Assembly: GCA_002361935.1 (NCBI GenBank)
Contig: DESD01000021.1
Span: 10,872 to 74,871 of the forward strand
Direction: 5' to 3'
Source: Ruminococcaceae bacterium UBA3323
GTDB lineage: Bacteria; Bacillota; Clostridia; Oscillospirales; Acutalibacteraceae
Length of the DNA: 64,000 nt
In this document: in pieces, positions 6,753 to 28,981 of the stretch
Position numbering within the stretch: the stretch's first letter is position 1
How the letters are laid out: each line of letters starts with the position of its first letter
The notes under the pieces: generated by a model
The model's database searches: none
Seen by the model: only the letters and a program-made list of their open reading frames with translations
What the model was told of the DNA's origin: nothing
Made by a program: the position numbers and the translations under genes

Positions 6753-6786
6753 AAAAAAGGCAGTGCAAATAAATTTTGCACTGCCT
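6753..6786 (-). terminator. Strong terminator between the hypothetical gene and the yabM-like gene
   Basis: Perfect 12-bp stem AGGCAGTGCAAA/TTTGCACTGCCT plus a U6 tract. Confidence 0.8.
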
Positions 6787-7384: not shown

Positions 7385-7413
7385 ATTATATTACCAATTG
7401 AACATCATTTCAA
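7385..7413 (-). promoter_or_regulatory. Near-consensus sigmaA promoter
   Basis: TTGAAA-17 nt-TATAAT. Confidence 0.75.
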
Positions 7414-7459: not shown

Positions 7460-8911
7460 TTATAAATTATATTCAGCATAAAAACGGGTTATACTTTGCT
7501 TACGTTTTAGAATTTCATCAAAACGGTCTATATATTCATAAGGATATTTATAGTTATATACCCGTTCTATTTTTCCGGATTTCGGATCCTTAAGCTTAAT
7601 AACCGCACCTGCCCCTACGGCAAGAACCGTATGTGTTTCATCCATCATAAAAACATTATAAAGGCAATCATATCCGTTTTTGCACCAGCCGACATTTTCA
7701 AGATTGCCAAGTGATTTACCCTGACGATACATATAATACGGATGATAATTATGCTTTGTTAATTGTTTACTGCTGAAATCAACCATGGAAGCAACTATTT
7801 TTTTTGGAGAGCTGTCAAACGCAGACTCTCTTGTTGCCATATACGCACCGCTTTTAAGAGAAAGCGTATGAACTGTTATGGATTCTGCGTTAAGTGAAAT
7901 ACCTTTACACAAACTTTTTTCAAAGGATTCCAGCGTATCGCCCGGAAGACCTGCAATAAAATCCATATTTATATTGTCAAATCCGCAATTTCTGGCAAGC
8001 TCAAAGGCTGAAACCGTCTGAGAAGAAGTATGCTGCCTGCCGATTGTTTTTAAAACCGCATCATTAAAGCTTTGCGGATTAATACTAATTCTTGATACAC
8101 CTGCAGATTTTAAAGTCAGCAGTTTATCCTTGGTTACCGTATCGGGTCTGCCTGCCTCAACCGTATATTCACGCACTGTGCTTAAATCAAAATTCTTTTC
8201 GATTGCTTCAAAAAGCCTTGCAAGATTTTTTGCCGAAAGCGTTGTGGGTGTACCTCCGCCGAAATAAACGGTTTCAAGCCTCAAACCCAACAACCTTGCA
8301 TAAACGGCTGTTTCCTCTATCTCCCGAATAAGCAGATCAACATAGGGATCAATAAGCTTAACCGTATTTTCAATCGCATGGGAAACAAAAGAGCAATATG
8401 AGCATCTGGTAGGACAAAAGGGAATTGATATGTAAAGGGAAAAGCTTTTACAGTCTGACAATGCGATAATTTTGTTTTCACTGTGCATAACAGACACGGC
8501 AAGTTCTGTTTTCTCATGGTTTACAAGATATTTTTCTCTGAAAACACGCTTTGCTTCCTCTTCCGACAAACTGTCCGTCAATGCATGCATTCTTCTTGCG
8601 GGTCTGACGCCATACAGCAAACCCCATGGATACCTGATTTCAAGAATTTCGGAAAGAACATGATATAAAAGTACGGAAAGTGCATTTTGCATATCCGTTT
8701 CACAATCAGCAGAAACACTTTCTTTTTTGTGCTTATCATAAACAGTTGCATCAACAGATAAAACATAATCCCGAATTTCCGTTATTACTGTAACAGGGTC
8801 TGTTTCATCACAGGAATTTTCAAATATTCTGATTTTTTCATAAGGGAAAAATATTGTGCTTATATTTTCCATATCATAGCGATACGGGTGATTTTTAACA
8901 AGTATTATCAT
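7460..8911 (-). CDS. hemZ: HemZ-like radical SAM protein (coproporphyrinogen dehydrogenase family)
   Basis: PWG.LYGVRP, YISIPFCPTRCSYCSF (CxxxCxxC), GGGTPT, EAGRPD, PYYMYRQ, NLENVG; follows relA-dtd-MBL as is usual in Clostridia. Confidence 0.9.
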   Translation of the reverse strand: MIILVKNHPYRYDMENISTIFFPYEKIRIFENSCDETDPVTVITEIRDYVLSVDATVYDKHKKESVSADCETDMQNALSVLLYHVLSEILEIRYPWGLLYGVRPARRMHALTDSLSEEEAKRVFREKYLVNHEKTELAVSVMHSENKIIALSDCKSFSLYISIPFCPTRCSYCSFVSHAIENTVKLIDPYVDLLIREIEETAVYARLLGLRLETVYFGGGTPTTLSAKNLARLFEAIEKNFDLSTVREYTVEAGRPDTVTKDKLLTLKSAGVSRISINPQSFNDAVLKTIGRQHTSSQTVSAFELARNCGFDNINMDFIAGLPGDTLESFEKSLCKGISLNAESITVHTLSLKSGAYMATRESAFDSSPKKIVASMVDFSSKQLTKHNYHPYYMYRQGKSLGNLENVGWCKNGYDCLYNVFMMDETHTVLAVGAGAVIKLKDPKSGKIERVYNYKYPYEYIDRFDEILKRKQSITRFYAEYNL

Positions 8912-8914
8912 AAT

Positions 8915-9529
8915 TCAATTCATATAAGGATTGTTTTTCTTTTCAAAATCGAGCGTTGAAAATGCTTCGTGACCCGGATAAAGTGTATAGTTTTTATCAA
9001 GAGCCGCAAGACGGTGAAGACTGTCCTTTATCTCTATGAACGAGCCTCCCGGAAAATCCGTTCTTCCGCAGGAACAGCAGAACAGCGTATCTCCGGTAAA
9101 AATAACATCATCGGCAATATAGCAAATGCCGCCTTTTGTATGCCCGGGCGTTGCCATAACCCGAATCTTGGTATTTCCAAGCGTAAGCATATCACCATCC
9201 GAAACAAGAATATCTGCACTTGCATCATGATGAATACCGCTGCAGAACGCAGCAAGACTAAGCTTTGAAGAAGTCAGCATGCCGGCATCCGCCTGACTGA
9301 TAACAACTTTTGCACGAAATCTTTCCTTAATTTCCTGAACACCGCCGATATGATCATAATGTCCATGCGTTAAAAGTATATATTCCAAATCTGCACTTTC
9401 TAAAAAAGAAAGCATTTTTTCCGAAGCATCCGTACAGTCAACAAGAGCGGATTTGCCGCTTTCTTTATCCGTTAAAAGATAACAATTATTTTCAAGTTCG
9501 CCAAGGCAAACAGACTTTACATCAATCAT
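8915..9529 (-). CDS. MBL-fold metallo-hydrolase (glyoxalase II-like)
   Basis: [33 protein letters not shown]. Confidence 0.9.
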
Positions 9530-9978
9530 TTCAATTCCTCACTGTCAAGAATAATGGTTACAGGACCGTCATTGATCAGTTCAACCTTCATATCCGCACC
9601 GAAGCAGCCTGTTTCAACCTTGGATACACCTGCTTTTACAAGCTCCTGAACAAAGTATTCATAAAGCATATTGGCCTCATCAGGCGCAGCAGAACGAATA
9701 AAGCTTGGCCGCCTTCCGTGCGAGCAATCTGCACAAAGCGTAAACTGAGAAACAACAAGCATTTCTCCGTTCACATCAAGGCAGGAAAGATTCATTTTTC
9801 CGTTTTCATCCTCAAAAATACGCAGATACGGGATTTTTTTAATCAGCTTATCGGCATCTGCCTTTGTATCTCCCTGCATAACACCAAGAAGAATCATAAA
9901 ACCTTTTCCGATTTCGCCGATAACTTTTCCGTCTGTTTTAACATTTGAATGAATAACCCGCTGAATTACCGCTTTCAT
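9526..9978 (-). CDS. dtd: D-aminoacyl-tRNA deacylase
   Basis: [32 protein letters not shown]. Confidence 0.97.
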
Positions 9979-12168
9979 TTATAAACCACTTCTTTCAATA
10001 TGATAAACACCATCAATCTTTTTAATAATTCTGACAATATTCTCAAGATGCTCCTTGCTGTTTACTGCAACGGTTAAGGTTGTTAAGCAATTTCCGTCAT
10101 TTATGGGACGGGCATTGATGGAATGAATTTTAACATGCATATTCATCAATGTGCTTGTAATATCAAGAACAACACCGTCTCTGTCTATTGCATAAACATC
10201 AAGGGTAGACTTTGTTTCTATTCTGACATTCTCATCCCAGTGGGCTTTTATCCAGCGCTCGGGCTCAGGACAGTTTTCTATATCCTGCGGAACATTAACA
10301 CAGTTTCGTTTATGAATGGAAAGTCCGTGTCCTCTGGTAATAAATCCGATAATTTCCTCACCGGGAAGCGGGGAACAGCAGTTTGCCATTTTTATAAGGC
10401 AATTATCAATTCCTTCTACAATAATACCGCTTGAGGAAGATGTTTTTCTGGGCTTATCCACAACATTTGAAAAGGAGGGCTTTTCCGGCTCCTTTTCTTC
10501 TTTCCAGTTTCTGTTGTATTCATCTTTGATGCCCGGCATAAGACGGCTTATTTGAATACCGCCATAGCCAACAGCAGCATAGAATTCATCCGTATCGCCG
10601 AAATGCTGTCGCTCGGCAATTCTTACAATGAAGTCATCATATTTATCTCCGGAAAGGCGGATAAAGTTGCGGCGCAGTTCTTTTTCAACAATTACCTTGC
10701 CCTCTTCAATATTCTCATCACGTCTTTCCTTTTTAAACCATGTACGGATTTTATTTCTTGCTTCACCGGTACGTACAATGGAAAGCCAGTCCTTACTTGG
10801 TCCCTTATTCTGCTGATTAGAAGTCAGAACCTCAATTCTTTCTCCGGTTTTAATCTTATAATCAAGAGGAACAATTCTTCCGTCCACTTTGGCACCAACC
10901 ATTTTATTACCGACCGCAGAATGAATAGCATAAGCAAAATCAATAACGGTTGAACCTGTGGGCAGACTTTTAATATCTCCCTTAGGCGTGAAAACATACA
11001 CCTCTTCAACAGATAAATCACCCTTGATATTTGCAACCAAATCTTCCGGAGTATCGGATTCCTCACCTGTTTCAAGCATACGATGAATCCATGAAAGACC
11101 GGCATCAAGGCTGTCTTTTCCGCCTTTTCCAAGCTTATATTTCCAATGGGCTGCTATACCGAACTCAGCAGTTCTGTGCATATCCCATGTTCTTATCTGA
11201 ATTTCAAAGGGAACACCATTCGGTGAAAGCACGGTTGTATGGAGAGACTGATACATATTGGGTTTAGGAGTTGAAATATAATCCTTGAATCTGCCGGGAA
11301 TCGGCTTAAACATATCATGAACAATACCAAGTGCATTATAGCAGTCTATCATAGAGTTCACGATGATTCTTACAGCATAGATATCATAAATTTCTTCAAA
11401 GGATTTTCCCTTTATATAAACCTTTCTGAATATGCCATGAACGGATTTTACTCTTGATGTTATACTTGCATTTTCAATAACGGGCGTAATTCTGTCACTG
11501 ATTTGTGTCTTAATATCGTTTAAAAATTTCTCGCCCTCCTCCTGCTTCATAGAAAGAGAATTTTCGATTTCCCTGTACGCAATAGGATCAAGATATCTGA
11601 CTGCTGCATCCTCCAGTTCCTCTTTAATTGCACGGATACCGAGCCTATGTGCAATCGGCGCATAAATTTCCAGCGTTTCAAGACTTTTTTCACGCTGCTT
11701 ATATTCAGGCATATGCTGAAGCGTTCGCATATTATGAAGCCGGTCTGCAAGCTTAATGATAATAACACGGACATCCTTGTTCATTGCCATAAACATTTTA
11801 CGGATATTTTCAGCCTGCACCTCTTCCCTTGTTGAAAGCGGAATCTGACCAAGCTTTGTAACGCCGTCCACAAGCAGCTCAACATCAGCACCGAAGCGGC
11901 TGCCGATATAGGAAAGCGTATATTCGGTATCCTCAACAACATCATGAAGCAGTGCACCAATAATGCATTCGTTATCCATTCCAAGCCGGAAAAGAATTTC
12001 GGCAACAGCAACGGGATGCATAATATACGGCTCGCCCGAACGCCTTTTCTGTCCCGAATGTGCATGATTTGCCAGCTCATAGGCCTCTTTTATTTTTTCA
12101 ATATTATATTGAGGATGCTTTTTTATTTCTTCAAAAAAGGCATCAAAGCCGTCGTTATACTCACACAA
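9979..12168 (-). CDS. relA: Bifunctional (p)ppGpp synthetase/hydrolase (long RSH)
   Basis: HD motif HDVVED, KLADRLHNMRT, RFKDYI (RxKD), YQSLHT, EIQIRT, TGS (DFAYAIH), ZFD (CCSPLPG..I.GFITRG), ACT. Confidence 0.97.
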   Translation of the reverse strand: MCEYNDGFDAFFEEIKKHPQYNIEKIKEAYELANHAHSGQKRRSGEPYIMHPVAVAEILFRLGMDNECIIGALLHDVVEDTEYTLSYIGSRFGADVELLVDGVTKLGQIPLSTREEVQAENIRKMFMAMNKDVRVIIIKLADRLHNMRTLQHMPEYKQREKSLETLEIYAPIAHRLGIRAIKEELEDAAVRYLDPIAYREIENSLSMKQEEGEKFLNDIKTQISDRITPVIENASITSRVKSVHGIFRKVYIKGKSFEEIYDIYAVRIIVNSMIDCYNALGIVHDMFKPIPGRFKDYISTPKPNMYQSLHTTVLSPNGVPFEIQIRTWDMHRTAEFGIAAHWKYKLGKGGKDSLDAGLSWIHRMLETGEESDTPEDLVANIKGDLSVEEVYVFTPKGDIKSLPTGSTVIDFAYAIHSAVGNKMVGAKVDGRIVPLDYKIKTGERIEVLTSNQQNKGPSKDWLSIVRTGEARNKIRTWFKKERRDENIEEGKVIVEKELRRNFIRLSGDKYDDFIVRIAERQHFGDTDEFYAAVGYGGIQISRLMPGIKDEYNRNWKEEKEPEKPSFSNVVDKPRKTSSSSGIIVEGIDNCLIKMANCCSPLPGEEIIGFITRGHGLSIHKRNCVNVPQDIENCPEPERWIKAHWDENVRIETKSTLDVYAIDRDGVVLDITSTLMNMHVKIHSINARPINDGNCLTTLTVAVNSKEHLENIVRIIKKIDGVYHIERSGL

Positions 12169-14185
12169 GGTTCAATCTTCCTTTCAGTTTTTTTATAACA
12201 GGTGTATTCATCAGATCCACCTTTGCGGCAACTTCGCAAACACGGATATCCTTTTCATCATATTCAATAAGTCCGCACTCCGAAAATGCCTTAAGCGCAA
12301 ATTTTAATTTGCCGTATGTAACAGAATTCAAAGCAAAATAAAGCTCATCAAAACCAAAGCACCAATGCTTTTTCTGTCTTAAAAACTTATAAATAACCGA
12401 GCAATCTGCTCTGTCCGGAAAAACAGATTCGGAATTATTTTTATGAAGCGAAAAAAGCTCGTATTCTTCCTTTTCGGCAAAATATTTATCATCATCATTT
12501 CCGTGCCTTTTAATATCGGCAGCCTGCAACGAAAGATATTCCCTGCCGTTATAAAGATTTTTTGAAGCCCTGACAACAGCATCTATATATTCTCCTGCCG
12601 CAAATGGAAATTCATCCGCAGTACATCTGAATTTAGAAATTTTAAAGATTTTGCCTTTCTTTTCACATTCAAGCCTGATATGTTTTCCGTTTCCCATAGG
12701 CGTTACGGAAAGCAGCCTTAAATTCATAAGAGCAAAAGCAGCATTTCGGTTTGCTTCGCCGAACGGCTCCAAAACAGAAAGTGAATCAACCAATTCTATA
12801 TTAAGAAAAGCAGGAGAAATTTTGCAGTCAATATTTATGGACGGAACCGGCATAACCGGATAAGCTGAAACTGCATATTCATTTATACGGTTTCGGAATA
12901 CATCAACATCCGCCGGGTTAAGCCCTAAACCTGCCGCCTTTGGATGACCGCCGAAATGGCTTAACATATCCGCACAGGCTGAAATCGCCTCGTAAATATT
13001 AAAGCCCTCTATACTCCTTGCCGATCCGACTGCCATCCCGTTTTCTTCAGTCAGAACAATAACGGGCTTGCCATATTCCTCAAGCACCTTTGCGGCAACA
13101 ATTCCGACAACGCCCAAATGATAATTTTTTCCGCACACCACGATAACCCGGTTTTTGGCGATATCGGGATTTTCTGCTATTTTAAGCATAACATCTTCAA
13201 AAATATTCTGTTCAAGCTCCTGCCTGTGTGCATTATCAATATTTATCTGTTCTGCCTTAAAAGCTGCATCATCTTTATTTTCACAAAGCAGAAGCTCTGC
13301 GGCTCTTGCTGCATCATCCACTCTTCCCGTTGCATTAATTCTTGGGCAAAGTGTAAAGGCAACATCGGTTGCAGTCAGCTTTTTATCTGCCGCTCCTGCC
13401 GCTTTTTTCAGGGCTTCAATACCGATTCGTGAGCCGCTGTTGATAAGCCTGATTCCCGCTTTTACAAACGCCCTGTTTTCACCGATAAGCGGCATAACAT
13501 CGGAAATTGTGCCAAGAGCAACCAAATCGGCAAACTGATAAAGCATATCCTCCGTATCCCCGTAAACAGCACAGGCAAGCTTAAAAGCTACGCCAACACC
13601 TGCAAAATCACGAAAAGCAATTTCATTTTCAGCTCTGTGGGGATTTACAACAGCTTCAGCCCTTGGAAGCGTATCTCCGATTTGATGATGGTCAGTTACA
13701 ACAAGACGCATACCAAGAGAATAAATATATTCAGCCTCTTCAATGGCGGAAATACCGTTATCAACCGTAACGATAAGCTTTGTGCCTCTTTCTCTGATTT
13801 TATCAATTGAGGCCCTGTTCATACCATAGCCCTCATTCAGACGTGAGGGAATATAATAATCAACATCAGCACCCATATCCTTCAGGAAGGTATAAAGAAG
13901 AACGGTTGAGGTTACACCATCACAGTCGTAATCGCCGAATATGGTTATTTTTTCTCCGTAATCCACAGCCTCTTCAATAGCAGAAACAGCCCTTTCCATA
14001 TCGCAAAGCTGAAAAGGGTCTGAAAAATCGTAAGAGGAGGCTAAAAAGTCTGCCACATCGGCACTGCTCTCTATCCCCCTTGAAACAAGCATAAATGCTA
14101 TAAACGGATCAATATTAAATTGTTCGCTTAAATCGGATGCCTTTTCTTTATCTGCATCTGCTATTATCCACTTTTTATATGCCAT
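12161..14185 (-). CDS. recJ: Single-stranded DNA-specific exonuclease RecJ
   Basis: GDYDCDG, P.R..EGYG, TVDNG, TDHH, RINA.GR, GSARS, FGGH..AAG, LEPFG..N. Confidence 0.96.
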   Translation of the reverse strand: MAYKKWIIADADKEKASDLSEQFNIDPFIAFMLVSRGIESSADVADFLASSYDFSDPFQLCDMERAVSAIEEAVDYGEKITIFGDYDCDGVTSTVLLYTFLKDMGADVDYYIPSRLNEGYGMNRASIDKIRERGTKLIVTVDNGISAIEEAEYIYSLGMRLVVTDHHQIGDTLPRAEAVVNPHRAENEIAFRDFAGVGVAFKLACAVYGDTEDMLYQFADLVALGTISDVMPLIGENRAFVKAGIRLINSGSRIGIEALKKAAGAADKKLTATDVAFTLCPRINATGRVDDAARAAELLLCENKDDAAFKAEQINIDNAHRQELEQNIFEDVMLKIAENPDIAKNRVIVVCGKNYHLGVVGIVAAKVLEEYGKPVIVLTEENGMAVGSARSIEGFNIYEAISACADMLSHFGGHPKAAGLGLNPADVDVFRNRINEYAVSAYPVMPVPSINIDCKISPAFLNIELVDSLSVLEPFGEANRNAAFALMNLRLLSVTPMGNGKHIRLECEKKGKIFKISKFRCTADEFPFAAGEYIDAVVRASKNLYNGREYLSLQAADIKRHGNDDDKYFAEKEEYELFSLHKNNSESVFPDRADCSVIYKFLRQKKHWCFGFDELYFALNSVTYGKLKFALKAFSECGLIEYDEKDIRVCEVAAKVDLMNTPVIKKLKGRLNLV

Positions 14186-14508
14186 TATGAATTTTTATCC
14201 ACCTGATGAAATTTTTTGAGGTTGCCTCGCTTTGCAGCTCTTTTTTCAAGCTCGGCTTCAATATCCTCAGGGGTAATACCCTGATTTGCCATCATGACAA
14301 GTGTATGATAAATCAAATCCGTTATTTCATAAACCGTTTCTTCCTTATCATTATTTTTAGCGGCAATCACCATTTCCGTGCATTCCTCGCCAACCTTTTT
14401 CAGTATTTTATCAATTCCCTGTTCAAAAAGATAGGCGGTGTATGAGCCTTCCGCCTTTTCATTTTTTCTTTCTATAATAACCTGATACTCGTTTTTAATT
14501 AAATCCAT
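14185..14508 (-). CDS. hisE: Phosphoribosyl-ATP diphosphatase
   Basis: GSYT.YLF..G.DKILKKVGEE..E, E..DL.YH..V. Confidence 0.95.
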   Translation of the reverse strand: MDLIKNEYQVIIERKNEKAEGSYTAYLFEQGIDKILKKVGEECTEMVIAAKNNDKEETVYEITDLIYHTLVMMANQGITPEDIEAELEKRAAKRGNLKKFHQVDKNS

Positions 14509-14837
14509 CAGAATTTTTCTCCTTTAATTTCATTGAAAAAACAGCTATGGCTTCCTGTATGGCAGGCCGCCCCTGTCTGAATAACCTTAACAAGCAGGGT
14601 ATCATCATCACAATCGCCGTGGATGGAAACGACTTTTTGAAGATGGCCGCTTGTTGCACCCTTGTTCCAAAGTTCCTGCCTGCTTCTGGACCAGAACCAT
14701 GTATAGCCGGTTTCAAGCGTTTTCTGCATAGACTCTTTGTTCATATATGCAAGCATAAGCACCTCGTTTGTGCCGCTTTCCTGAATAATGGCCGGAATTA
14801 AATCAGCCTTCTGAAAATATTTTTCTATATTCATCAT
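14508..14837 (-). CDS. hisI: Phosphoribosyl-AMP cyclohydrolase
   Basis: [39 protein letters not shown]. Start probably 14837 (ATGA overlap with hisA). Confidence 0.95.
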
Positions 14838-15547
14838 TTGCACACCTCTATGGCTTCCTCAAGAATAAGGGTTTTATTATAAAGGCTTTTTCCGCAGATT
14901 GCACCATACAGCCCCTCTTTTTTCAGAGCAAGAATATCATCAATATTTGTTACTCCGCCCGAAGCGGTTATATCACAGGAAACTGCATTGTTGATTTCGG
15001 CAAGCTGGCTGATATTCGGACCGCTCAATGTACCGTCCTTTGAAATATCGGTATAAATAATTGTTTTTACACCGGCTGCCTCCATCTGCTTTGCAAGCTT
15101 CGTAAAATAAACATCGGAGCCCTCTGTCCATCCCTCGGCTGCAGCATAACCGTTTTTCGCATCAATACCAACAGCAATGATATCGCCGAATTCTTTAACA
15201 GCCTCCCTAACCAAATTCGGATTCTTAAGAGCAACAGAGCCGAGAATAATACGACTTATATTATGATTTACATAAAAATCTATATCCTGCATCGTTCGGA
15301 TACCGCCGCCGATTTCAACCTTAAGCCCTGTTTGATTTGCAACATCTGTAAAGGTTTTAGCATTTACAGGCTTTTTCTGCAAAGAGCCATCCAAATCAAC
15401 CATATGTATCCATGAAGCGCCTGCCTTTTCAAACTGAAAAGCGGTTTCAAGTGCGTTATCGGCAACCTGATGCGCTGTTGAAAAATCGCCCTTGTAAAGG
15501 CGAACGGGTTTACCGTCTATAATATCTATTGCAGGAAAAATAATCAT
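14834..15547 (-). CDS. hisA: ProFAR isomerase
   Basis: IFPAIDI.DG..VRL.KG, H.VDLDG, GGGIR, TDI.KDGTL.GPN, ASGG. Confidence 0.95.
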
Positions 15548-16122
15548 TACAGAACTCCTTTTGTGGAAAGTACTCCGCCGTTATTTTTGGTTACGGCAAT
15601 TTTTAATGCATGTGCAAGCGCTTTAAATAAAGCCTCTATCTCGTGATGGGAATTAGAGCCATACAGAACATTCAGATGAAGCGTGATACCCGAATTCATT
15701 GCAAAGGCACGGAAGAATTCCTCCGTACAGCAGGTTTCATAATCTCCGCAGCGCTCCTCATTAAAATCTGCATGAAACACAAGAAACGGTCTGTTGGAAA
15801 TATCAAGAGAGCACATTGCAAGGCTTTCATCCATAGGAATACTGAAGGAACCGTACCTATTAATTCCGCACATATCGCCAAGTGCTTTTTTGAACGCCAT
15901 ACCAAGCGCAATTCCCGTATCTTCAACGGTATGATGCGTATCTACCTCAAGATCGCCTGCTGTCTTAACATTAAGGCCAAAGCCGCCGTGAACACCCAAG
16001 GCATTCAGCATATGATCAAAAAAACCGATACCTGTTGATACTTCAACCTCGCCGCCATCAAGATTTAATTCAATTCTAATCTGTGTTTCTTTCGTGTTTC
16101 TTTCAATAGAAGAAGTTCTCAT
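15547..16122 (-). CDS. hisB: Imidazoleglycerol-phosphate dehydratase (monofunctional)
   Basis: R.TKETQI, TGIGFFDHML, HHTVED, PMDE, NSHHEIEA.FKA, STKG. Confidence 0.96.
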   Translation of the reverse strand: MRTSSIERNTKETQIRIELNLDGGEVEVSTGIGFFDHMLNALGVHGGFGLNVKTAGDLEVDTHHTVEDTGIALGMAFKKALGDMCGINRYGSFSIPMDESLAMCSLDISNRPFLVFHADFNEERCGDYETCCTEEFFRAFAMNSGITLHLNVLYGSNSHHEIEALFKALAHALKIAVTKNNGGVLSTKGVL

Positions 16123-16136
16123 ATTTACACCTCTTT

Positions 16137-16340
16137 TCAGTCCTGAAAAAGACTGTTCATAAGCTTGTTTATATTGTTTTTTCTTTTATCTGTTTCCTCA
16201 GCTTCAACAGAAATTTTTATAACATCGCCCTCTTTAATACCATCCGGCAATGCCCTGAGCGGAAGATCCGCAAAGCTTCCCTCTTCAATTTCACAAACTG
16301 CAAAACCGGCTTCAATTCTGTCTACTACTAACCTTTTCAT
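16137..16340 (-). CDS. DUF3006-like small protein
   Basis: VDRIE..FAVCE......LP..LP.G.KEGDV; its usual partner, a ComEC-like MBL, is adjacent. Confidence 0.75.
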   Translation of the reverse strand: MKRLVVDRIEAGFAVCEIEEGSFADLPLRALPDGIKEGDVIKISVEAEETDKRKNNINKLMNSLFQD

Positions 16341-16343
16341 ATA

Positions 16344-17237
16344 TTATTCCTTTTCACAGTAAAGCGTAATATTCGTTTTATCGGAAACAACGGCTACATT
16401 TCCGTTTATATCCGTTCTTAAAATCTTTGCGCCGATTTCGCTTAAATTATTTATCGCTTCAAAATGAGGATGATTATAGGAATTATCCTTTCCAACCTCA
16501 ATAACAGCAATACCGGGCGAAACAGCACTTACAAATTCAAAGGAGGAAGCAGTTTTACTGCCATGATGACCTACCTTTAAAACATCAGCATTCAGTTTAT
16601 CCTTTGTTGAAGCTTTTAATATTTCTGTTTCAGAAGCAGCCTCGGCATCACCCATAAACAGAAACACATTACTGCCGTATTGAAGCCTTAAAACTGCCGA
16701 ATACGCATTAAGATTATCATAATTGGCTTTCACAGGGGCAAGAAATTCGGCAGACAAATCATCTTCATCAAGAACCGCTGCACCCGCCTTTGCCGTATGG
16801 ATACTCCTGCCCTTATCGGAAATTGCAAGAAGCAGGTTTTCATATGTTTGGGTATTTGCCGAAACCTTTGGCATATAGATGTCACCGATATCAAAATGCT
16901 CAACAACCGCTTTCATTCCGCCGATATGGTCGGCATGCGGATGTGTTGCAACAAGATAATCAATTTTACTGTATCCAAGCCTAGAAATAAAATCAATTAT
17001 TGTATCTGATGCATCAGATGTTGAAGCATCAATCAGCATACATTTTCCGTCGGGAAGCTGAACAAACTCGCTGTCCCCCTGCCCTACGTCTAAATAATTT
17101 ACAACGATTGTACCGTCCGTCTGCAGGTTTTTACCTGCTTCAAGCTCTTTGGTTTCCGTAAGATAATACCCGGTAACGCTGAGCAAAGCAACAACAATAG
17201 CAGCAATAATCGTTTTTATAAGCTTTTTATTTCTCAT
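16344..17237 (-). CDS. Membrane-anchored or secreted ComEC/Rec2-type MBL-fold hydrolase
   Basis: N-terminal hydrophobic anchor, YLDVGQGD, THPHADHIGG, FMGDAE, KVGHHGS, HPH, RTD.NG. Confidence 0.85.
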   Translation of the reverse strand: MRNKKLIKTIIAAIVVALLSVTGYYLTETKELEAGKNLQTDGTIVVNYLDVGQGDSEFVQLPDGKCMLIDASTSDASDTIIDFISRLGYSKIDYLVATHPHADHIGGMKAVVEHFDIGDIYMPKVSANTQTYENLLLAISDKGRSIHTAKAGAAVLDEDDLSAEFLAPVKANYDNLNAYSAVLRLQYGSNVFLFMGDAEAASETEILKASTKDKLNADVLKVGHHGSKTASSFEFVSAVSPGIAVIEVGKDNSYNHPHFEAINNLSEIGAKILRTDINGNVAVVSDKTNITLYCEKE

Positions 17238-18520
17238 TTATCAAATCTTACCTTGATGGAGTTGGCATGCGCAGTTAAGCCCTCACTGTCTGCAAGCGTA
17301 ACAATTTCATCCTTAGCCTGTGCAAGCGCATCCTCTGTATAATAAATAAATGAAGATTTTTTTACAAAGCTGTCAACAGAGAGCGGACTGAAAAATCTTG
17401 CTGTTCCGCTTGTAGGAAGGACATGGTTCGGGCCTGCAAAATAATCACCGAGAGGTTCAGGCGACCAGTTACCAAGAAAAACAGAACCGGCATTATCAAG
17501 CATGCCTATATATTTAAGAGGCTCCTCAACACAAAGCTCAAGATGCTCGGGAGCAAGCTCATTTGCAAATTCAATAGCCTGAGCAAGATTTTCACAAACG
17601 ATTATCTCTCCATAGCTTTCAAGGGACTGCTCTATAATTTCCTGCCTTTCCAGGAACTTAATCTGCTTTTCAATTTCCTTTGCAGTAGCTTTTGCAACAG
17701 CCTCTGAGGTTGTTAAAAGAATAGAAGACGCCATTACATCATGCTCTGCCTGACTCATTAAATCAGCTGCAAGAAAGGACGGCTTTGCCGTTTTATCCGC
17801 AACAATAAGAATCTCGGACGGACCGGCAACCATATCAATATCCACAACGCCGTAAAGAAGCTTTTTGGCAGTTGCAACAAAAATATTTCCGGGACCGACA
17901 ATTTTATCAACCTTTGGTATTTTTTCCGTTCCGTAAGCAAGTGCGGCAACAGCCTGTGCACCGCCGCAAAGGAAAACCTTATCAACACCGGCAACTGCAG
18001 CAGCAGCCATAATGTTCGGGTTGGGAGAGCCATCCTTTGACGGGGGAGTTACCATTATAATCTCCTTAACCCCTGCAATCTTGGCCGGAACAGCATTCAT
18101 CAAAACAGAGCTTGGATAAGCTGCTGTGCCGCCGGGAACATAGATTCCGACTCTTTTAAGACCGCGAACACGCTGCCCCATAATCACGCCGTTTTCCTTT
18201 GTTGTAAGCCAGCTTTGCTGCGCTTGACGCTGATGGAAATCATAAATATTATTTTTAGCATCAACCACAGCCTGCTTGAAATCATCATCAACCAGATCAA
18301 GATACGCCGAAAGCTCGTCCTTTTCAATAACTGTTTTTTTAGGCACGGCACCGTCAAATCTTACGGTATATTCACGAACGGCATCATCACCGCCCTCTTT
18401 TACACCCTGAATAATGGATGAAACAATATCAACAATTTTCTGATCTGTTTCGCCGCTTCTTTTCTTCAGATTCTCAATAAGCGCATATTCGCTTTTTCCG
18501 TTTGCTTTTGTAATTTTCAT
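17234..18520 (-). CDS. hisD: Histidinol dehydrogenase
   Basis: YVPGGTAAYPSSV, KIVGPGN, DM.AGPSE, QAEHD, APEHLE, GDY.AGPNHVLPT. Confidence 0.97.
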   Translation of the reverse strand: MKITKANGKSEYALIENLKKRSGETDQKIVDIVSSIIQGVKEGGDDAVREYTVRFDGAVPKKTVIEKDELSAYLDLVDDDFKQAVVDAKNNIYDFHQRQAQQSWLTTKENGVIMGQRVRGLKRVGIYVPGGTAAYPSSVLMNAVPAKIAGVKEIIMVTPPSKDGSPNPNIMAAAAVAGVDKVFLCGGAQAVAALAYGTEKIPKVDKIVGPGNIFVATAKKLLYGVVDIDMVAGPSEILIVADKTAKPSFLAADLMSQAEHDVMASSILLTTSEAVAKATAKEIEKQIKFLERQEIIEQSLESYGEIIVCENLAQAIEFANELAPEHLELCVEEPLKYIGMLDNAGSVFLGNWSPEPLGDYFAGPNHVLPTSGTARFFSPLSVDSFVKKSSFIYYTEDALAQAKDEIVTLADSEGLTAHANSIKVRFDK

Positions 18521-18529
18521 ATTTTACCC

Positions 18530-20143
18530 TCACGCCTTACTTGCTTTTTCCATATCAGCAAGAAATGCTTCAATTTCATCCTTGCGAAGCTTCATGGAAG
18601 CCATATTAACAATAACCCTTGCAGAAATAGGGAAAATTTCCTCTACAACCTCAAGCCCGTTTTCTTTTAAAGTTGAACCTGTTTCCACAATATCAACAAT
18701 GCCGTCTGCCAAACCGAGAAGAGGCGCAAGCTCAACACTGCCTTCAATTTTAATAATATCCACATCCATACCCTTTGATTTAAAGAAATCTCTTGCAACC
18801 TTCGGATATTTTGATGCAACTGTTTTTCTTTTATAACCACTGAAAAAATCCGTATTTTTAGGACAGGCCAGCGCAAATCGGCACTTGCCGAGGTTTAAAT
18901 CCATAACCTCATAAAAGGAGCTGCCATGCTCAACAATTGTATCCTTTCCCACAACACCGATATCGCAGACACCGTGTTCAACATAGGTGATGACATCCGG
19001 TGCTTTTGAAAGAACAGCCTCATACTTATCAACGGGAAGAATTAATCTTCTGCCTTTGTTTTCAAGTTCACTTGTATCAAGCCCCATTTTCTGAAAAAGA
19101 CTGACCGATGATTTTTCAAGCCTGCCCTTTGTTAATGCAATTCGGATAGGACGCTCCACATTAATAACTTCATTCTTGGCATCACAGAGTGCATTAACAT
19201 CAACGCCAAAACCGATAGCCGGAACATCCAGACCGAATTCAGCAATAAGATTATCATATCTTCCGCCTGAAAGTATTGTTGCACCCGAGCCTTCTGCATA
19301 TCCCCTGAAAATAACGCCTGTATAATAATTTGAACGGTTAACAAGCCCCAAATCTATCATCACGGCATCAGAAATTTTCATTTCTTCAAGTTTGCCCAAA
19401 AGCGTTTTCAGATAATCAAGTGCTTTATCCGAATTTTCACTCTGATAAAGCTTTTTCGCTTCATCCAGCACCTCTGTACCGCCGAAAAGACGGGGAAGCT
19501 TATGGAGTACCTGTGTTTCCGGAGTATTTCCGATTTCATCAAGCAAATCACCGAGGGCTGCGTAATTCTTACCCTCGATAAGCTTGCATATCTCTGACTT
19601 TTCGGTTGAAGATAAATCCATTTTATCAAGCACAGCATTGAAAAAACCTGCATGGCCGATTTCAATCTTAAATGAATTAACACTTGACCTTTTCAGTGCC
19701 TCAACCGCCATAGAGATAACCTCTATATCAGCCTCAAGTGAAGCATCACCGATAAATTCAATTCCGCTCTGAGGAATTTCATCCGTAGTTCCTGCAAGCA
19801 CCTTGTTCTTAACAAAAACATTCTGGTTGTAATAAAGCCTTACAGGAAAATCTGCCTCTTTGAGCCTTGTTGCAACAAGACGGGCAATCGGCATTGTATT
19901 ATCCGGACGAAGCACTGTTGTTCTGCCGTGATTATCGGTTAATTTATACATATCATCGGCCTCAATGCCTGCATTCCCGTTTGTAAATACATCAAAAAAT
20001 TCAATCGCCGGGGTTACAACCTTACGATATGAATTTTCCTTGTATAGCGTCGAAAGTGCAGTTTCCACATTCTTTCTGTCGTCACATTCGTCAAAAAGAA
20101 AATCACGGCTGCCCTCGGGTGTTATATTTGAATATCTTTTCAT
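18530..20143 (-). CDS. hisZ-hisG: Fused ATP phosphoribosyltransferase: HisZ regulatory domain (N-terminal ~325 aa) plus short-form HisG (C-terminal ~210 aa)
   Basis: N: TPEG.RD.L, LRPDNT.PIAR, QSGIE, YYTG..F, GGRYD.L. C: IALTKGRL, YVE.G..D.G.VGKD, ASKYP, GSVELAP..GLAD.IVDIVETG.TL.ENGL. One uninterrupted 537-aa frame. Confidence 0.92.
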   Translation of the reverse strand: MKRYSNITPEGSRDFLFDECDDRKNVETALSTLYKENSYRKVVTPAIEFFDVFTNGNAGIEADDMYKLTDNHGRTTVLRPDNTMPIARLVATRLKEADFPVRLYYNQNVFVKNKVLAGTTDEIPQSGIEFIGDASLEADIEVISMAVEALKRSSVNSFKIEIGHAGFFNAVLDKMDLSSTEKSEICKLIEGKNYAALGDLLDEIGNTPETQVLHKLPRLFGGTEVLDEAKKLYQSENSDKALDYLKTLLGKLEEMKISDAVMIDLGLVNRSNYYTGVIFRGYAEGSGATILSGGRYDNLIAEFGLDVPAIGFGVDVNALCDAKNEVINVERPIRIALTKGRLEKSSVSLFQKMGLDTSELENKGRRLILPVDKYEAVLSKAPDVITYVEHGVCDIGVVGKDTIVEHGSSFYEVMDLNLGKCRFALACPKNTDFFSGYKRKTVASKYPKVARDFFKSKGMDVDIIKIEGSVELAPLLGLADGIVDIVETGSTLKENGLEVVEEIFPISARVIVNMASMKLRKDEIEAFLADMEKASKA

Positions 20144-20161
20144 AGTTTATCTCCTTGATTA

Positions 20162-20196
20162 CACTTTAGCGTGCTAACGTGCTACTATGCTAACAC
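20162..20196. promoter_or_regulatory. Putative HisR-type operator (20-bp pseudo-palindrome plus an overlapping second site)
   Basis: CACTTTAGCGTGCTAACGTG (20162-20181) and GTGCTACTATGCTAACAC (20179-20196), lying over the +1/-10 region of the his promoter. Confidence 0.65.
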
Positions 20197-20215
20197 ATTG
20201 AAACTGTAATGTCAA
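20187..20215 (-). promoter_or_regulatory. sigmaA promoter of the his operon
   Basis: TTGACA-17 nt-TAGCAT, with TG upstream of the -10. Confidence 0.8.
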
Positions 20216-20218: not shown

Positions 20219-23200
20219 TTAAAATAAAGAAATCTGATTACTGTCCGGCAAATCGCCCAGAGCGCCGCATTCACGAAGTGATTCAACAACACTGGAACCG
20301 ATATGCGCTCTTGCCATTAAATCATCACAGGAAATAAAATCACCATTGCCGTCGTGAACAGCATCATAAATGGATTTGGCAGCATTTTCTCCAACGCCTG
20401 AAATAGCGGAAAACGGAAGCCTGATTTTACCGTCTTCAATCTTATAGACACGCCAATCCGATTTATACAAATCAACAGACAGAAATTCTATTCCCCTTGC
20501 AAGCATTTCTATAACAATCTGATTAACAACATAGGTTGATTCTTCTTTAGCAGTAATCGGATCATTGTTTTTCTTTTTAGCATTATATTCATTCATTTTT
20601 GCCTTAACCGCCGCTTTGCCCGCAACTGCCGAAACGGCATCCAAATCGCCGCCACGAACGGTAAAATAAGCAGAATAAAAATGAATGGGATAATAAATTT
20701 TATACCACGCAAGGCGAAGCGCCGCAATAACATAAGCGGCGGCATGCGCCTTCGGGAACATGTATTTGATTTTATAACAGGAATCAATATACCACTGCTC
20801 AACACCGATTGTTTTCATTGCTTCCTCATACGGCGGAAGCTCTTTCGGAGCCTTACCCTTACGGGTATATTCCATAATCTTGAAGCAATCCTTCTTTGAT
20901 AGAGGAGATTCCTTTCCGGTTTCCTTTTCATATTTTTCTGCAACATGAATAAGATGCGTCATAATATCATCACGGCATCCGATAACCTCGGAAATCGTAC
21001 AGGTACCATTCTGAATAAGCTCCTGCGCATTACCGAGCCAAACATCCGTGCCATGTGAAAGCCCTGAAATCTGAAGCAAATCGGCAAAGGTTTTTGGCTG
21101 AGCCTCTTCAAGCATTCCGATAACAAACGGCGTTCCCATTTCGGGAATAGCAAGCGTGCCGGTATTACAGCCGATATCCTCAGGTGCCACGCCGATCGGC
21201 TCTGTTGATGTAATCAGCTGATAAAGCTTCGGATCGGCAAGATCAACATCCATAACGGGAATTCCGGTTGAATCCTCAAGATATTTATAAAGCGTGGGAT
21301 TATCGTGACCAAGTTCATCAAGCTTAAGCAATGTATCGTGAAGTGAATTTTTAAAGTCAAAATGCGTTGTATAGGTTCCCTTTGATGCATCGTTTGACGG
21401 ATACTGAATCGGTGTAAAATCTTCAACAGTATATTTATCCGGAACTACAACCATTCCGCCCGGGTGCTGACCTGTTGTGCGCTTAATACCTGTGCAGCCC
21501 TTGGTTAATCGGTCTATTTCCGCTCTTGGAGTACCGACAATATTGCGCTCATCAAGATATTTCATAACATAGCCGTATGCCGTTTTATCGGCAACAGTTG
21601 CCATTGTTCCTGCCTTAAACACATAATCCTTACCGAAAAGCTCTTCGGTATATCTATGGGAGCGTGACTGATATTCCCCGCTGAAATTAAGGTCGATATC
21701 CGGCTCCTTATCACCGTCAAACCCAAGGAAGGTTTCAAACGGAATTTCGTGGCCGTCACGTTTCATGGGTGTTCCGCATTCCGGGCAATTTTTCGGCGGC
21801 AGATCAAAGCCCGAGCCATATTCACCGTGAAGGAAAAATTCACTGTGCTTACAATTCTTACAATAATAATGCGGAGCAAGAGGATTAACCTCTGATATAC
21901 CGCCGAAATGGGCAGCAAGAGAAGAGCCTACTGAGCCTCTTGATCCAACAAGATATCCGTTTCGCTCACTCTCCTCAACAAGACGCTTTGCAATAACATA
22001 CAGCACACCGAAGCCATGGCCGATAATAGAATCCAGCTCACGCTGAAGACGGCCTGCAACATATTCGGGAACAGGATCGCCGTAAAGTTCCTTTGCCATA
22101 GACCAGCATTTTTCTGTTAACTCCTCGTTGGCACCGTCAATATGCGGCTGGAATGTTCCGGGAGGAATAGGCGGAATATTATCCATAACCATATCCGCAA
22201 TTTTATTTGGATTATCAATAACAAATTCCTTTGCCCTGTCCCCTGCCCATGCAAAATCAGCAAGCATTTCATCCGTTGTTTTAAAATAGAGAGGTGCCTG
22301 ATTATCGGCATCATCAAAACCCTTTGACGCCATAATGATAGCACGGAACTTTGCATCCTTTTCATCAAGGAAATGAACATCTCCCGTAGCAACAACAGGC
22401 TTGCCAAGCTTATCTGCAAGCGCAATGATTTTCTTGTTAATATTGATTAAATCTTCCTCGGTATTTACCTTCCAATGAAGATTTTTCTTTTCTTCGCCTT
22501 TTTTATTTGTTATATATTCCTGATCGCTTGTGCGAAGCATAAAAGCATTATTTCCGTTTGGCTGAATTTCAAGATAATCATAAAAGGAAGCAATTCTTTC
22601 AAGTTCTTCCTCAGACTCCTCACACAGAATCGCCTGATAAAGCTCACCCTGTTCACAGGCAGAGCCTAAAATCAATCCGTCACGCTTGGCTGCAAGCATG
22701 GATTTCGGAATAAGCGGACGGGTTTTATAGGTTTTTACATTTGAATGAGAAATAAGCTCATAAAGATTCTTTCTTCCGTATTTTCTTTCCTCTTTCGGAA
22801 TGCTTTCATCAAGAGAGGTATCCTCTTTTACAAGCAGAATAATGTGATGCCGTTTAAACTGATTATTTTTCAGCTTCATAAAATTGGGATATTTTTCATC
22901 ATCTACCAAATATCCTTCCATGCCAAGAATGAGTTTTATCTTTCCCTTGGCAGCATTATATGCTTCCGGAAGAGCCTGTACAACGCCATGATCTGTAACC
23001 GCTATTGCCTTATGTCCCCATTTAATTGCTCTGTTTATAAGCGCTTTCGGAGCAGTTATGCCATCCATTTCGGAAAGTGAGGTATGAAGATGAAGCTCAA
23101 CTCTTTTTTCCTCTGCGTGATCCTCTTTTTCGGCTTTAAGAACGGTTTGAATACTGTCCGGAGTAATCATATATTTTCCGGAAAAGCTATCCTCCTTATA

Positions 23201-24061
23201 TCCGCCTCTGACAATAAGGGTCTGCGCGTCTGCTATTTTGGAAGCAACGGCTTCAACAACATCCTTCGTATCAAAAACCTTTACGGATACAGACGAGGTG
23301 TAATCCGTTATATCAAAGGTTAAAATTTTATAATAGCCTCTTTTTGTATCCTTCAGCTCATAATTCAGTATATCGCCCCAGACAGTTGCAATACCTGTAT
23401 CAAAAGCAAGATCGCTGATCGGCATAGGCTTTTCCTTTATACCTTTTCCGAAAATTGTTTTTGCAGTATCTATGTAAATCGGCAAATCCCCGAGAAGAGT
23501 ATGCTTTATATTTTTAATCTCTTCCTTTTTCATTTCCTCTTCTTTAGCTTTCTTCTCGGCAGCCGCCGCCTTAGCAGCCTTTTCAACATCATAGCTTTCG
23601 GTTTCTATCATTTCGGTTTTTACGGATATGCCGAACATTTCAAGAAGGGCATTTTCAATATCCTTGTCCACACCCTGTGCCAGAAGCAAATCAAGACCGC
23701 CCTTTTTAAGCGAAATTTTAAGCACGTCCGTTTCAAGCAAAACATCGGCATCATCAAAAAAGCCGTTTGCCGCGGGATTTCTTCTTTTCACATAATCAAT
23801 AACGGATGAAAAATACCCGAGTTCAAACAAATCACTCAAATATCTTGGCTTAATGATAACCTTTTTAAGCTGCATTGCACCTTTTATATCTTTTTCTGCC
23901 GTTGCTATTTCTGAATACGGTACAAGCTCGGGAAGCGTAAGAGTAATATAAACCTCCCTGGCTTCTTTTTTTATGGTAAGACGGTCTATAACACCATCGC
24001 CAAGGCTTGACAATTGATAAGCATTAACATAACCGCCGAAATAATCTTTAAACAAACGCAT
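20219..24061 (-). CDS. polC: DNA polymerase III PolC-type alpha subunit lacking the exonuclease insert
   Basis: OB fold, PHP (ELHLHT..S.MDG, TDHG, GME, GSACE, GDVH), GSRGSVGSS, C4 Zn finger, KEPDIDLNFS, KLD.LGH, YMFPKAHAAAY; no DxETTG DEDDh block. Confidence 0.95.
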   Translation of the reverse strand: MRLFKDYFGGYVNAYQLSSLGDGVIDRLTIKKEAREVYITLTLPELVPYSEIATAEKDIKGAMQLKKVIIKPRYLSDLFELGYFSSVIDYVKRRNPAANGFFDDADVLLETDVLKISLKKGGLDLLLAQGVDKDIENALLEMFGISVKTEMIETESYDVEKAAKAAAAEKKAKEEEMKKEEIKNIKHTLLGDLPIYIDTAKTIFGKGIKEKPMPISDLAFDTGIATVWGDILNYELKDTKRGYYKILTFDITDYTSSVSVKVFDTKDVVEAVASKIADAQTLIVRGGYKEDSFSGKYMITPDSIQTVLKAEKEDHAEEKRVELHLHTSLSEMDGITAPKALINRAIKWGHKAIAVTDHGVVQALPEAYNAAKGKIKLILGMEGYLVDDEKYPNFMKLKNNQFKRHHIILLVKEDTSLDESIPKEERKYGRKNLYELISHSNVKTYKTRPLIPKSMLAAKRDGLILGSACEQGELYQAILCEESEEELERIASFYDYLEIQPNGNNAFMLRTSDQEYITNKKGEEKKNLHWKVNTEEDLININKKIIALADKLGKPVVATGDVHFLDEKDAKFRAIIMASKGFDDADNQAPLYFKTTDEMLADFAWAGDRAKEFVIDNPNKIADMVMDNIPPIPPGTFQPHIDGANEELTEKCWSMAKELYGDPVPEYVAGRLQRELDSIIGHGFGVLYVIAKRLVEESERNGYLVGSRGSVGSSLAAHFGGISEVNPLAPHYYCKNCKHSEFFLHGEYGSGFDLPPKNCPECGTPMKRDGHEIPFETFLGFDGDKEPDIDLNFSGEYQSRSHRYTEELFGKDYVFKAGTMATVADKTAYGYVMKYLDERNIVGTPRAEIDRLTKGCTGIKRTTGQHPGGMVVVPDKYTVEDFTPIQYPSNDASKGTYTTHFDFKNSLHDTLLKLDELGHDNPTLYKYLEDSTGIPVMDVDLADPKLYQLITSTEPIGVAPEDIGCNTGTLAIPEMGTPFVIGMLEEAQPKTFADLLQISGLSHGTDVWLGNAQELIQNGTCTISEVIGCRDDIMTHLIHVAEKYEKETGKESPLSKKDCFKIMEYTRKGKAPKELPPYEEAMKTIGVEQWYIDSCYKIKYMFPKAHAAAYVIAALRLAWYKIYYPIHFYSAYFTVRGGDLDAVSAVAGKAAVKAKMNEYNAKKKNNDPITAKEESTYVVNQIVIEMLARGIEFLSVDLYKSDWRVYKIEDGKIRLPFSAISGVGENAAKSIYDAVHDGNGDFISCDDLMARAHIGSSVVESLRECGALGDLPDSNQISLF

Positions 24062-25113
24062 TATAATTTATCTATCTCTTTCATTAATTCTTCAAGTAAT
24101 TTATCCTCGGGAACTTTTCGAAGTATTTCTCCCTTTTTAAAAATAAGTCCGTTGCCGTCTCCTCCTGCAATGCCGATATCGGCTTCCTTTGCTTCTCCGG
24201 GACCGTTTACGATACAGCCCATAACGGCAACCTTAATTGGTTTTTTGCAATCCTTTAATCTTTCTTCAACCTGTTTTGCAAGACCGATTAAATCAATTTT
24301 TGTTCTGCCGCAGGTTGGGCAGGAAATAAGATAAGGGCAATCCTTTTTCAGCCCTACTGCTTTTAAAATATCAAATGCCGCAAATACCTCTTTCACAGGT
24401 TTATCGGAAAGACTTACACGAATCGTATCGCCTATTCCCCTTGTTAAAAGAGAGCCTATTCCAACGGATGATTTGATTATGCCCATCCTTTCCGTTCCTG
24501 CTTCTGTTACACCAAGATGAAGAGGATATCTGCATTTTTCAGAGGCAAGCTCATAAGCGGAAATCATTGTATTCACATCCGATGATTTGATTGAAATAAC
24601 AATATCATCAAAATCAAACTTCTCAAGAAGTGATGCATGATACAGTGCGGATTCAACCATGGCTTCCGGTGTCGGAGAGCCGTACTTTGCAAGAATTTCT
24701 TTTTCAAGGCTGCCGCTGTTTACACCTATTCTGATAGGAAGCCCCTTTAATCTGCATATATCGGCAACCGCCTTAACTCTTGATTCATCGCCGATATTAC
24801 CCGGATTAATTCTGATTTTATCTATTCCTCTTTCAGCTGCACCAAGTGCAAGCTTATAATCAAAATGAATATCTGCAACAAGAGGAACATCAACAGCCTT
24901 TTTTATAGGCTCTATAAGCGCAAGCGCCTTATCATCGGGAATTGCAAAACGAATTACCTGACAGCCTGCTGCGGCAAGCTCCTTTGCCTGTTCAACCGAG
25001 CCCTTGATATCAGAAGCAGGCATGTTAAGCATAGACTGAACAAGAACAGGCGCATCTCCGCCGATAAAAGTATTTTTCAGCTTTATTTTTTTTGTTTCTC
25101 TTCTTTTAATCAT
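24061..25113 (-). CDS. ispG: HMBPP synthase
   Basis: VQSM, PLVADIHFDY, RINPGNIG, IRIGVNSGSL, HLGVTEAG, GIGDTIRVSL, SCPTCGRT, VMGC.VNGPGEA. Confidence 0.97.
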   Translation of the reverse strand: MIKRRETKKIKLKNTFIGGDAPVLVQSMLNMPASDIKGSVEQAKELAAAGCQVIRFAIPDDKALALIEPIKKAVDVPLVADIHFDYKLALGAAERGIDKIRINPGNIGDESRVKAVADICRLKGLPIRIGVNSGSLEKEILAKYGSPTPEAMVESALYHASLLEKFDFDDIVISIKSSDVNTMISAYELASEKCRYPLHLGVTEAGTERMGIIKSSVGIGSLLTRGIGDTIRVSLSDKPVKEVFAAFDILKAVGLKKDCPYLISCPTCGRTKIDLIGLAKQVEERLKDCKKPIKVAVMGCIVNGPGEAKEADIGIAGGDGNGLIFKKGEILRKVPEDKLLEELMKEIDKL

Positions 25114-25148
25114 AATTTTTACCTCTATCTAATTTTGCATTCATCAAA

Positions 25149-26189: not shown

Positions 26190-26222
26190 TAAATCGCCTC
26201 TTTTTAGCTTTCGCCAAATTTG

Positions 26223-28242: not shown

Positions 28243-28264
28243 ATTGAATTCCCCTTATCATTCA

Positions 28265-28981
28265 TTACCCGCCGAAACGGCGATTTCTTTTTTCAAACTC
28301 ATGAAGCGCCATATGAAGGTCCTCTTCATCAAAATCAGGCCACAGCACATCACTGTACCAGAATTCGCTGTAAGCTGCCTGCCACAAAAGGAAATTGGAA
28401 AGTCTTTCCTCGCCGCTCGGCCTTATTATCAGATCGCATTCCGGCATCGTATAAACATTATCACTGATATCCTGCTCGGTTATCTCGGTTTTACCGCCGG
28501 CAATAAGCTTATTTACGGCAGATACAATTTCCTGCCTGCCGCCGTAGTTGATGGCAAGATTCACTACAGTTCCCGTTCTGTCGGCAGTTGTAGCCTCCGC
28601 TTCATCCATAAGCTTCAGCAGTTCGGGATGAATGCCCTCTCTTTCACCTGCAAATCTGATACGGATATTCCCTGTTTCTGCAATTCTGTCTCTTGCTTCA
28701 ATAAGAAAATCATAAAAAAGACGCATAAGCGTGTTTACTTCTTCTTTGGGCCTTTTCCAGTTTTCGGTTGAAAAGGCATAAAAGGTTACCTCTTCAATAC
28801 CGAGTCTGCCGCATTCCTTACAGATTTTTTCAAACACATCTGCACCTGCTCTATGCCCTGCAGTTCTGGGCAAGCCCCTTTTTTTAGCCCATCTGCCGTT
28901 ACCGTCCATAATAATACCGATATGCTTCGGAAGAACGGTGAATTCGTCCGTTTTCTTTTCTTTTTTTCTGAATAAAGCCAT
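28265..28981 (-). CDS. uppS: Undecaprenyl diphosphate synthase
   Basis: HIGIIMDGNGRWA, FSTENWKRP, NYGGR, IRPSGE.RLSNFLLWQ, RRFGG. Confidence 0.97.
   Translation of the reverse strand: MALFRKKEKKTDEFTVLPKHIGIIMDGNGRWAKKRGLPRTAGHRAGADVFEKICKECGRLGIEEVTFYAFSTENWKRPKEEVNTLMRLFYDFLIEARDRIAETGNIRIRFAGEREGIHPELLKLMDEAEATTADRTGTVVNLAINYGGRQEIVSAVNKLIAGGKTEITEQDISDNVYTMPECDLIIRPSGEERLSNFLLWQAAYSEFWYSDVLWPDFDEEDLHMALHEFEKRNRRFGG

Follow-up and report, generated by a model that had tools for sequence, protein, structure and literature searches.

Fusion of a histidine biosynthesis operon with the recJ-rel-dtd cluster in Ruminococcaceae bacterium UBA3323 and its relatives

The histidine regulons of Firmicutes described by Ashniev et al. 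(2022, PMC9413887) are governed by HisR, a TrpR-family repressor (YerC in Bacillus subtilis) whose DNA binding requires L-histidine, a dependence demonstrated in vitro only for the HisR of R. gnavus. Such regulons combine a 20-bp operator at the his promoter, for which the Firmicutes consensus is cacTTTAnnnnnnTAAAgtg, with a hisR gene and a further site at an ABC transporter. The locus described here, in a window of 64,000 nucleotides from Ruminococcaceae bacterium UBA3323 (family Acutalibacteraceae; contig DESD01000021.1, positions 10,872 to 74,871), belongs to a genome with the same three features. The published regulons stop at the his genes, whereas here the unit continues into five non-histidine genes, among them rel, the gene for a RelA/SpoT homologue (RSH). 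The genes recJ, relA and dtd go unmentioned in the HisR paper and in its supplements (PMC9413887), and no report of a his-rel operon was found in the literature searched.

The distal half of the locus corresponds to another known arrangement, the recJ-(apt)-relA-dtd-(MBL-hemZ/hisS) cluster of Firmicutes, in which MBL stands for a protein of the metallo-β-lactamase fold. The order recJ-rel-dtd-MBL-hemZ and the tight spacing are those of other Clostridia (loci L027, L033, L037 and L051). Elsewhere in the family this cluster has its own terminator and TG-extended promoter, in agreement with an earlier note on this DNA that had called it a normally separate unit; in the window both elements are absent, and the recJ start falls within the stop codon of hisE. 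In function, the closest precedent is the activation of relA transcription by NtrC in nitrogen-starved Escherichia coli (Brown et al. 2014, PMC4066584), where a nutrient-specific regulator is likewise tied to transcription of a (p)ppGpp synthetase. In that case, a dedicated sigma-54 promoter and an activator have been shown experimentally, whereas the tie in the window would, judging from the sequence, come from operon fusion behind a repressor-controlled promoter. The locus also resembles the housekeeping operon fusions that result from genome compaction, such as the co-directional, terminator-less run pyrH-frr-uppS-cdsA-dxr-rseP-ispG-polC with overlapping stops and starts in the same window. 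Unlike in those fusions, the upstream partner here has a metabolite-responsive operator, which gives the fusion a predictable regulatory consequence.

The his-rel array is a real fusion of two known operons. The open reading frame (ORF) list places thirteen genes on the minus strand, to which all window features given below belong, from 20143 to 7460 in the order hisZG-hisD-MBL-DUF3006-hisB-hisA-hisI-hisE-recJ-rel-dtd-MBL-hemZ, with protein identities taken from Pfam and NCBIfam profile matches. All gaps are at most 14 nt long or are replaced by overlapping stop and start codons, and the ORFs and junctions that the earlier note had described are all present. The two operons meet between hisE (14185..14508) and recJ (12161..14185; TIGR00644, 528 bits), where the hisE stop codon lies on the recJ start in a TAATG motif (14187-14183) with an overlap of 1 nt. 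This layout is typical of translational coupling, and translation of recJ is probably coupled to the termination of hisE. The genes recJ and rel (9979..12168; TIGR00691, 760 bits) overlap by 8 nt, provided that translation of rel begins at the TTG at 12168; a GGAAG Shine-Dalgarno sequence stands 8 nt before this candidate start. The D-aminoacyl-tRNA deacylase gene dtd (9526..9978; Pfam match) abuts rel in the sequence TAAATG and overlaps the gene for a GloB-like MBL-fold hydrolase (8915..9529) by 4 nt in an ATGA motif, and a gap of 3 nt separates the latter from the gene for a HemZ-type radical SAM protein (7460..8911; TIGR03994, 523 bits).

Comparison with the remainder of the family indicates how the junction may have formed. 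In outgroups the gene order is polC-hisZ-hisG-hisD-hisC-hisB-hisA-hisI-hisE, and recJ-rel is found elsewhere or at a distance of 2 kb; the link between polC and his is therefore the ancestral state. In genome G181, hisE and recJ are parted by two unrelated genes and a 180-nt spacer. Among the 16 outgroup genomes in which the recJ start could be located, 13 carry a recJ promoter of the form TTGAAT/TTGAAA-17-TGnTA(A/C/T)AAT, at a distance of 23-57 nt from the start codon in 12 cases, and a terminator hairpin was found upstream of recJ in all three outgroups inspected by eye. In the fused clade, only 1 of 25 loci has any site with a score of 10 or more in the 200 nt next to recJ, compared to the 13 of 16 outgroups (Fisher p = 4e-7). 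Because the ancestral promoter and terminator are both gone from the fused clade, the event appears to have been a deletion removing the two together. The operon fusion is accordingly peculiar to one small clade of gut Clostridia: the shared ancestor of about four related genera would have lost the DNA between hisE and recJ, and with it the terminator and the extended -10 promoter that served recJ-rel-dtd-MBL-hemZ. With the promoter of the rel operon lost, co-transcription with the his genes becomes likely.

The fused order is well conserved among the relatives. A RecJ-based search with one genome per species gave 26 close relatives, and all related loci reaching far enough upstream share polC-hisZG-hisD-(MBL-DUF3006)-hisB-hisA-hisI-hisE-recJ-rel-dtd-MBL-hemZ-orf185-PST. 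The survey of junction conservation that the earlier note had proposed finds an identical TAATG at hisE/recJ in 24 of 25 related loci. At one locus (L022:9385-9406) a 22-nt hisE-recJ spacer takes the place of TAATG. The same locus has a TTGACA-18-TAATAT match, with 6 nt between the end of its -10 and the recJ ATG. Across 201 genomes from 185 genera, sampled evenly from the family, hisE adjoins recJ in 6 genomes of 4 genera, including one single-contig genome, and these six are the genomes with the most similar RecJ (47-59% identity). Many gut metagenome assemblies, independent of one another, contain exact copies of the window HisE with the same neighbors.

The only strong promoter match ahead of the array, TTGACA-17-TGtTAGCAT (20187..20215), stands upstream of hisZG and consists of TTGACA (20215-20210), a 17-nt spacer and a TG-extended -10 TAGCAT (20192-20187). 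Of about 22 related loci, 17 have a promoter scoring at least 10 at ∼40-50 nt 5' of hisZG. The 75-nt spacer between polC and hisZG holds this promoter, the palindrome CACGTTAGCACGCTAAAGTG and a ribosome-binding site; the block of promoter and palindrome is kept in relatives, but the DNA 5' of the -35 is not. The 20-bp palindrome (20162..20181) spans roughly positions +1 to +20 of the predicted transcript. It agrees with the published Firmicutes HisR consensus at 13 of the 14 specified positions, has a single mismatch to cacattagcacgctaaagtg, the HisR site listed for the his operon of Eubacterium siraeum (PMC9413887 supplement), and is the top intergenic match to the consensus in the genome. 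The operator is retained in the genera g17 and g95. By this consensus match, the element that the earlier note had described as an operator-like palindrome is a known kind of histidine-responsive operator, and the corresponding regulator is encoded in the genome by a hisR gene of the YerC family (C5:1722-1976; PF01371, 100.5 bits; TIGR02531, 131.5 bits). The array would accordingly be expected, from operator and repressor gene together, to be regulated by HisR in this organism.

Further sites of the HisR type occur outside the window. A weaker one, TACTTTCAAGCTTTAATGTG (11 of 14 positions), abuts the TG-extended -10 of hisR (region C5:1722-2055) and suggests autoregulation, which has been reported for about half of genomes (PMC9413887). 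A second palindrome, CACATTAGCATACTAAAGTC (C61:34129-34148), sits between the TTGACT and TGaTAAAAT elements of a promoter that precedes the genes for a polar amino-acid ABC transporter made up of binding protein, permease and ATPase; this transporter is likely a histidine uptake system of the HisXYZ kind. Two adjacent half-palindromic HisR-like sites, TACTTTAGCGCTTTAAAGTC and CACTTTAAAGCGGATTAGTG, are found at C49:20086-20129 just 5' of an HMGL-like aldolase/carboxyltransferase gene, identified by eye. No HisR-type site was found before hisHF (C8) or hisC (C7). A search of the whole window for T-box, riboswitch or other Rfam elements gave no match, and the leader of hisZG measures only ∼43 nt from -10 to ATG, with no sign of T-box or attenuator control.

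The rel product shows the domain order HD hydrolase, RelA_SpoT synthetase, TGS, AH/RIS and ACT, which fits a long bifunctional RSH. In the genome, a 2.0-Mb draft of 71 contigs that is 92% complete, rel is the only gene detected with a RelA_SpoT domain, and no small alarmone synthetase was found. To judge from these domain matches, both the synthesis and the removal of (p)ppGpp would depend on the window Rel alone.

In the mechanism proposed here, recJ, rel, dtd, MBL and hemZ would be transcribed as the distal part of transcripts begun upstream, with ribosomes that end hisE feeding recJ translation. Two inputs are envisaged. HisR binds only with histidine, so the input from the his promoter would rise when histidine is scarce. 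The second input would come from polC and its upstream genes, whose transcripts would run on for want of a terminator and provide a constitutive floor. Only 3 nt separate the polC stop codon from the -35 element of the his promoter; no terminator was found between the two, here or in most relatives, so constitutive read-through is to be expected. Co-transcription of rel with the his genes is considered fairly probable. A single RNA would then cross the hisE/recJ junction, and the level of Rel protein may shift enough to matter.

The absence of terminators within the array, one of the observations of the earlier note, holds in silico: no strong intrinsic terminator was found, and only weak hairpins of 5-7 bp occur, all of them in coding sequence. 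The hairpin at 15503-15486 in hisA was rejected as an internal terminator and attributed to chance, given its 7-bp stem, its conserved codons and a synonymous conservation that is not raised. The claim of a single clear promoter at hisZG stands in part. It is the only strong match ahead of the array but not the only possible input, as read-through from polC and weak intragenic sites such as TGATAAAAT have to be counted. Scans of 25 orthologous loci, by distance and by codon-aligned column, detected no conserved sigma-70-type site in hisA or hisI. The sole recurrent promoter-like site upstream of recJ in the scans of hisE, hisI and hisA is TGATAAAAT within hisE (14405..14413), a candidate weak extended -10 without a -35. 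It was rejected as a conserved promoter: it coincides with the invariant GIDKIL codons, is similar in outgroups and is not kept in g17 and g95. In hisD, promoter-like matches recur at several positions. Consensus scans of this kind overlook weak, extended -10-only or alternative-sigma promoters. Synonymous-site conservation, normalized per amino acid in all twelve genes, shows outliers only at gene 5' ends (hisB, hisZG, rel, hemZ and hisE), and no constraint was seen in hisI or in the 3' part of hisE.

Several points temper the proposed mechanism. Read-through from polC is likely a histidine-independent source of rel transcripts. The element TGATAAAAT might act as a promoter in this genome and in those closely related to it, and the match at L022 may be either a coincidence or a promoter of recent origin. 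The only RSH gene, recJ and dtd are all needed when histidine is plentiful, which argues for an input independent of HisR. Conservation of the junction may reflect plain inheritance, the whole neighborhood from polC to PST being syntenic. Tight arrays of unrelated genes are also common in this organism, as in the 1-nt overlap of ispG and polC. A crude ORF-based survey finds 43% of same-strand neighbors genome-wide at most 15 nt apart and 12% with an overlap of 1 or 4 nt. The window itself is almost wholly minus-strand and contains a second run of thirteen genes, with all gaps at most 40 nt, beginning at 52262. Spacing alone is therefore weak evidence for shared function. What goes beyond chance is the conserved hisE/recJ junction together with the loss of the ancestral recJ promoter, not the tight packing itself.

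Two explanations of the fusion compete in substance. According to the first, it is an adaptive circuit: HisR would sense a shortage of histidine, the amounts of the only (p)ppGpp synthetase/hydrolase, of RecJ and of Dtd would go up, and the stringent response would be primed in addition to the usual activation of Rel through uncharged tRNA. The HisR operator at the only strong promoter, the lost recJ promoter, the TAATG coupling site conserved in four genera and the status of Rel as the only RSH are all consistent with such a circuit, and the NtrC-driven transcription of relA in E. coli provides a precedent (PMC4066584). Nevertheless, the circuit appears doubtful. Nothing points to selection for the link over an inherited deletion, synonymous constraint at the junction is not raised, and transcription running on from polC would make the histidine signal less sharp. 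The pathway genes hisHF and hisC lie elsewhere and have no HisR site, so that the locus is not a tidy histidine regulon. Furthermore, RSH enzymes such as Rel are controlled chiefly allosterically, at the level of activity. Because of this, the physiological extra genetic layer is something that we infer rather than a finding. A physiologically meaningful, selected link from histidine to the stringent response is thus rated as rather unlikely. It is also only tentatively suggested that a sole (p)ppGpp synthetase/hydrolase lacking its own promoter and placed transcriptionally under HisR would make histidine limitation a privileged feed-forward trigger, acting before uncharged tRNA accumulates.

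The second explanation treats the two halves as independent units. Weak or non-sigma-70 promoters inside the his genes, or RNA processing, would give recJ-rel-dtd a constitutive transcript to which the his promoter contributes little, and the fusion would be a mere compaction of non-coding DNA. Housekeeping genes need expression with or without histidine, the 2.0-Mb genome is small and densely packed, and both the candidate TGATAAAAT in hisE and the recurrent matches in hisD could supply such promoters. Yet no candidate promoter is kept across all four genera, hisI and the 3' part of hisE are free of synonymous-site constraint, and the ancestral promoter was strong and well conserved, with nothing comparable in its place. 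The overlap of stop and start codons moreover implies ribosomes coming from hisE. Independent expression of the two halves is held to be rather unlikely. A chimeric join produced during assembly or binning of this metagenome-assembled genome, conceivable for a draft of 71 contigs, is refuted: more than 25 assemblies made independently, in different studies and from different hosts, show the same junction, one of them a single-contig genome.

The upstream half of the array shows some peculiarities of its own. The gene hisZG (18530..20143) encodes HisZ, the regulatory subunit, fused to a short-form HisG in a single protein of 537 amino acids, compared to two genes and a HisZ with a longer C-terminal part in outgroups of the same family; a fused his(ZG) has already been listed for Oscillibacter (PMC9413887). 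It is followed by hisD (17234..18520), a gene for an MBL-fold protein resembling the C-terminal domain of ComEC (16344..17237) and a gene for a small DUF3006 protein (16137..16340). The ComEC-like MBL and DUF3006 pair (16137-17237) occupies the position of hisC in the outgroups, between hisD and hisB, and is absent from several relatives (L014, L016-L018 and the genera g17 and g95). The genes hisB (15547..16122), which encodes imidazoleglycerol-phosphate dehydratase only, hisA (14834..15547; TIGR00007, 249 bits, above the cut-off) and hisI (14508..14843) complete this half up to hisE. The histidine pathway is complete yet scattered, with hisH-hisF on contig C8 (22592-23977), hisC on contig C7 (22572-23633) and two PHP-type histidinol-phosphatase candidates elsewhere in the genome. 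Two tRNA-like genes precede hisH on the opposite strand. The ComEC-like MBL protein was considered as the missing histidinol-phosphate phosphatase and is unlikely to be it in view of the two PHP-type HisJ candidates; the idea is further weakened by the relatives in which the MBL/DUF3006 pair is missing.

The upstream neighbor of the array is polC (20219..24061; Pfam, ORFs), coding for an exonuclease-less, short-form PolC of 1280 amino acids. It ends the run pyrH-frr-uppS-cdsA-dxr-rseP-ispG-polC (20219-30354), whose gaps are just as small, with ispG and polC overlapping by 1 nt, and which leads on to the his promoter. No strong terminator was found from pyrH through orf185. A promoter match TTGAAA-17-TATAAT (7385..7413) after hemZ heads orf185, and the first strong intrinsic terminator 3' of the array, with a 12-bp stem and a T-run, follows orf185 at 6758..6786. 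In two loci of distant Clostridia (L037:7193-8107 and L028:17452-18498), the gene after the recJ-rel cluster, which in L037 stands after hemZ, matches the HisZ part of HisZG with 25-26% identity. This gene is probably hisS, encoding histidyl-tRNA synthetase. A hisS gene after the recJ-rel cluster would mirror the old linkage of relA-dtd with hisS-aspS in Bacillus.

The transcriptional control of long RSH enzymes has been little studied outside E. coli. Should the coupling prove physiologically irrelevant, the locus would serve as a caution on inferring function from tight spacing in small Clostridia genomes. By comparative genomics, the family-wide promoter of the rel operon appears to have been exchanged for a metabolite-specific, repressor-controlled biosynthetic promoter, which presents genome compaction as a possible route to regulatory rewiring. 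If the proposed control is true, both stringent-response capacity and tRNA proofreading by Dtd would go up on histidine limitation, and the clade would offer a natural experiment on whether the abundance of Rel, and not its activity alone, is tuned to one amino acid.

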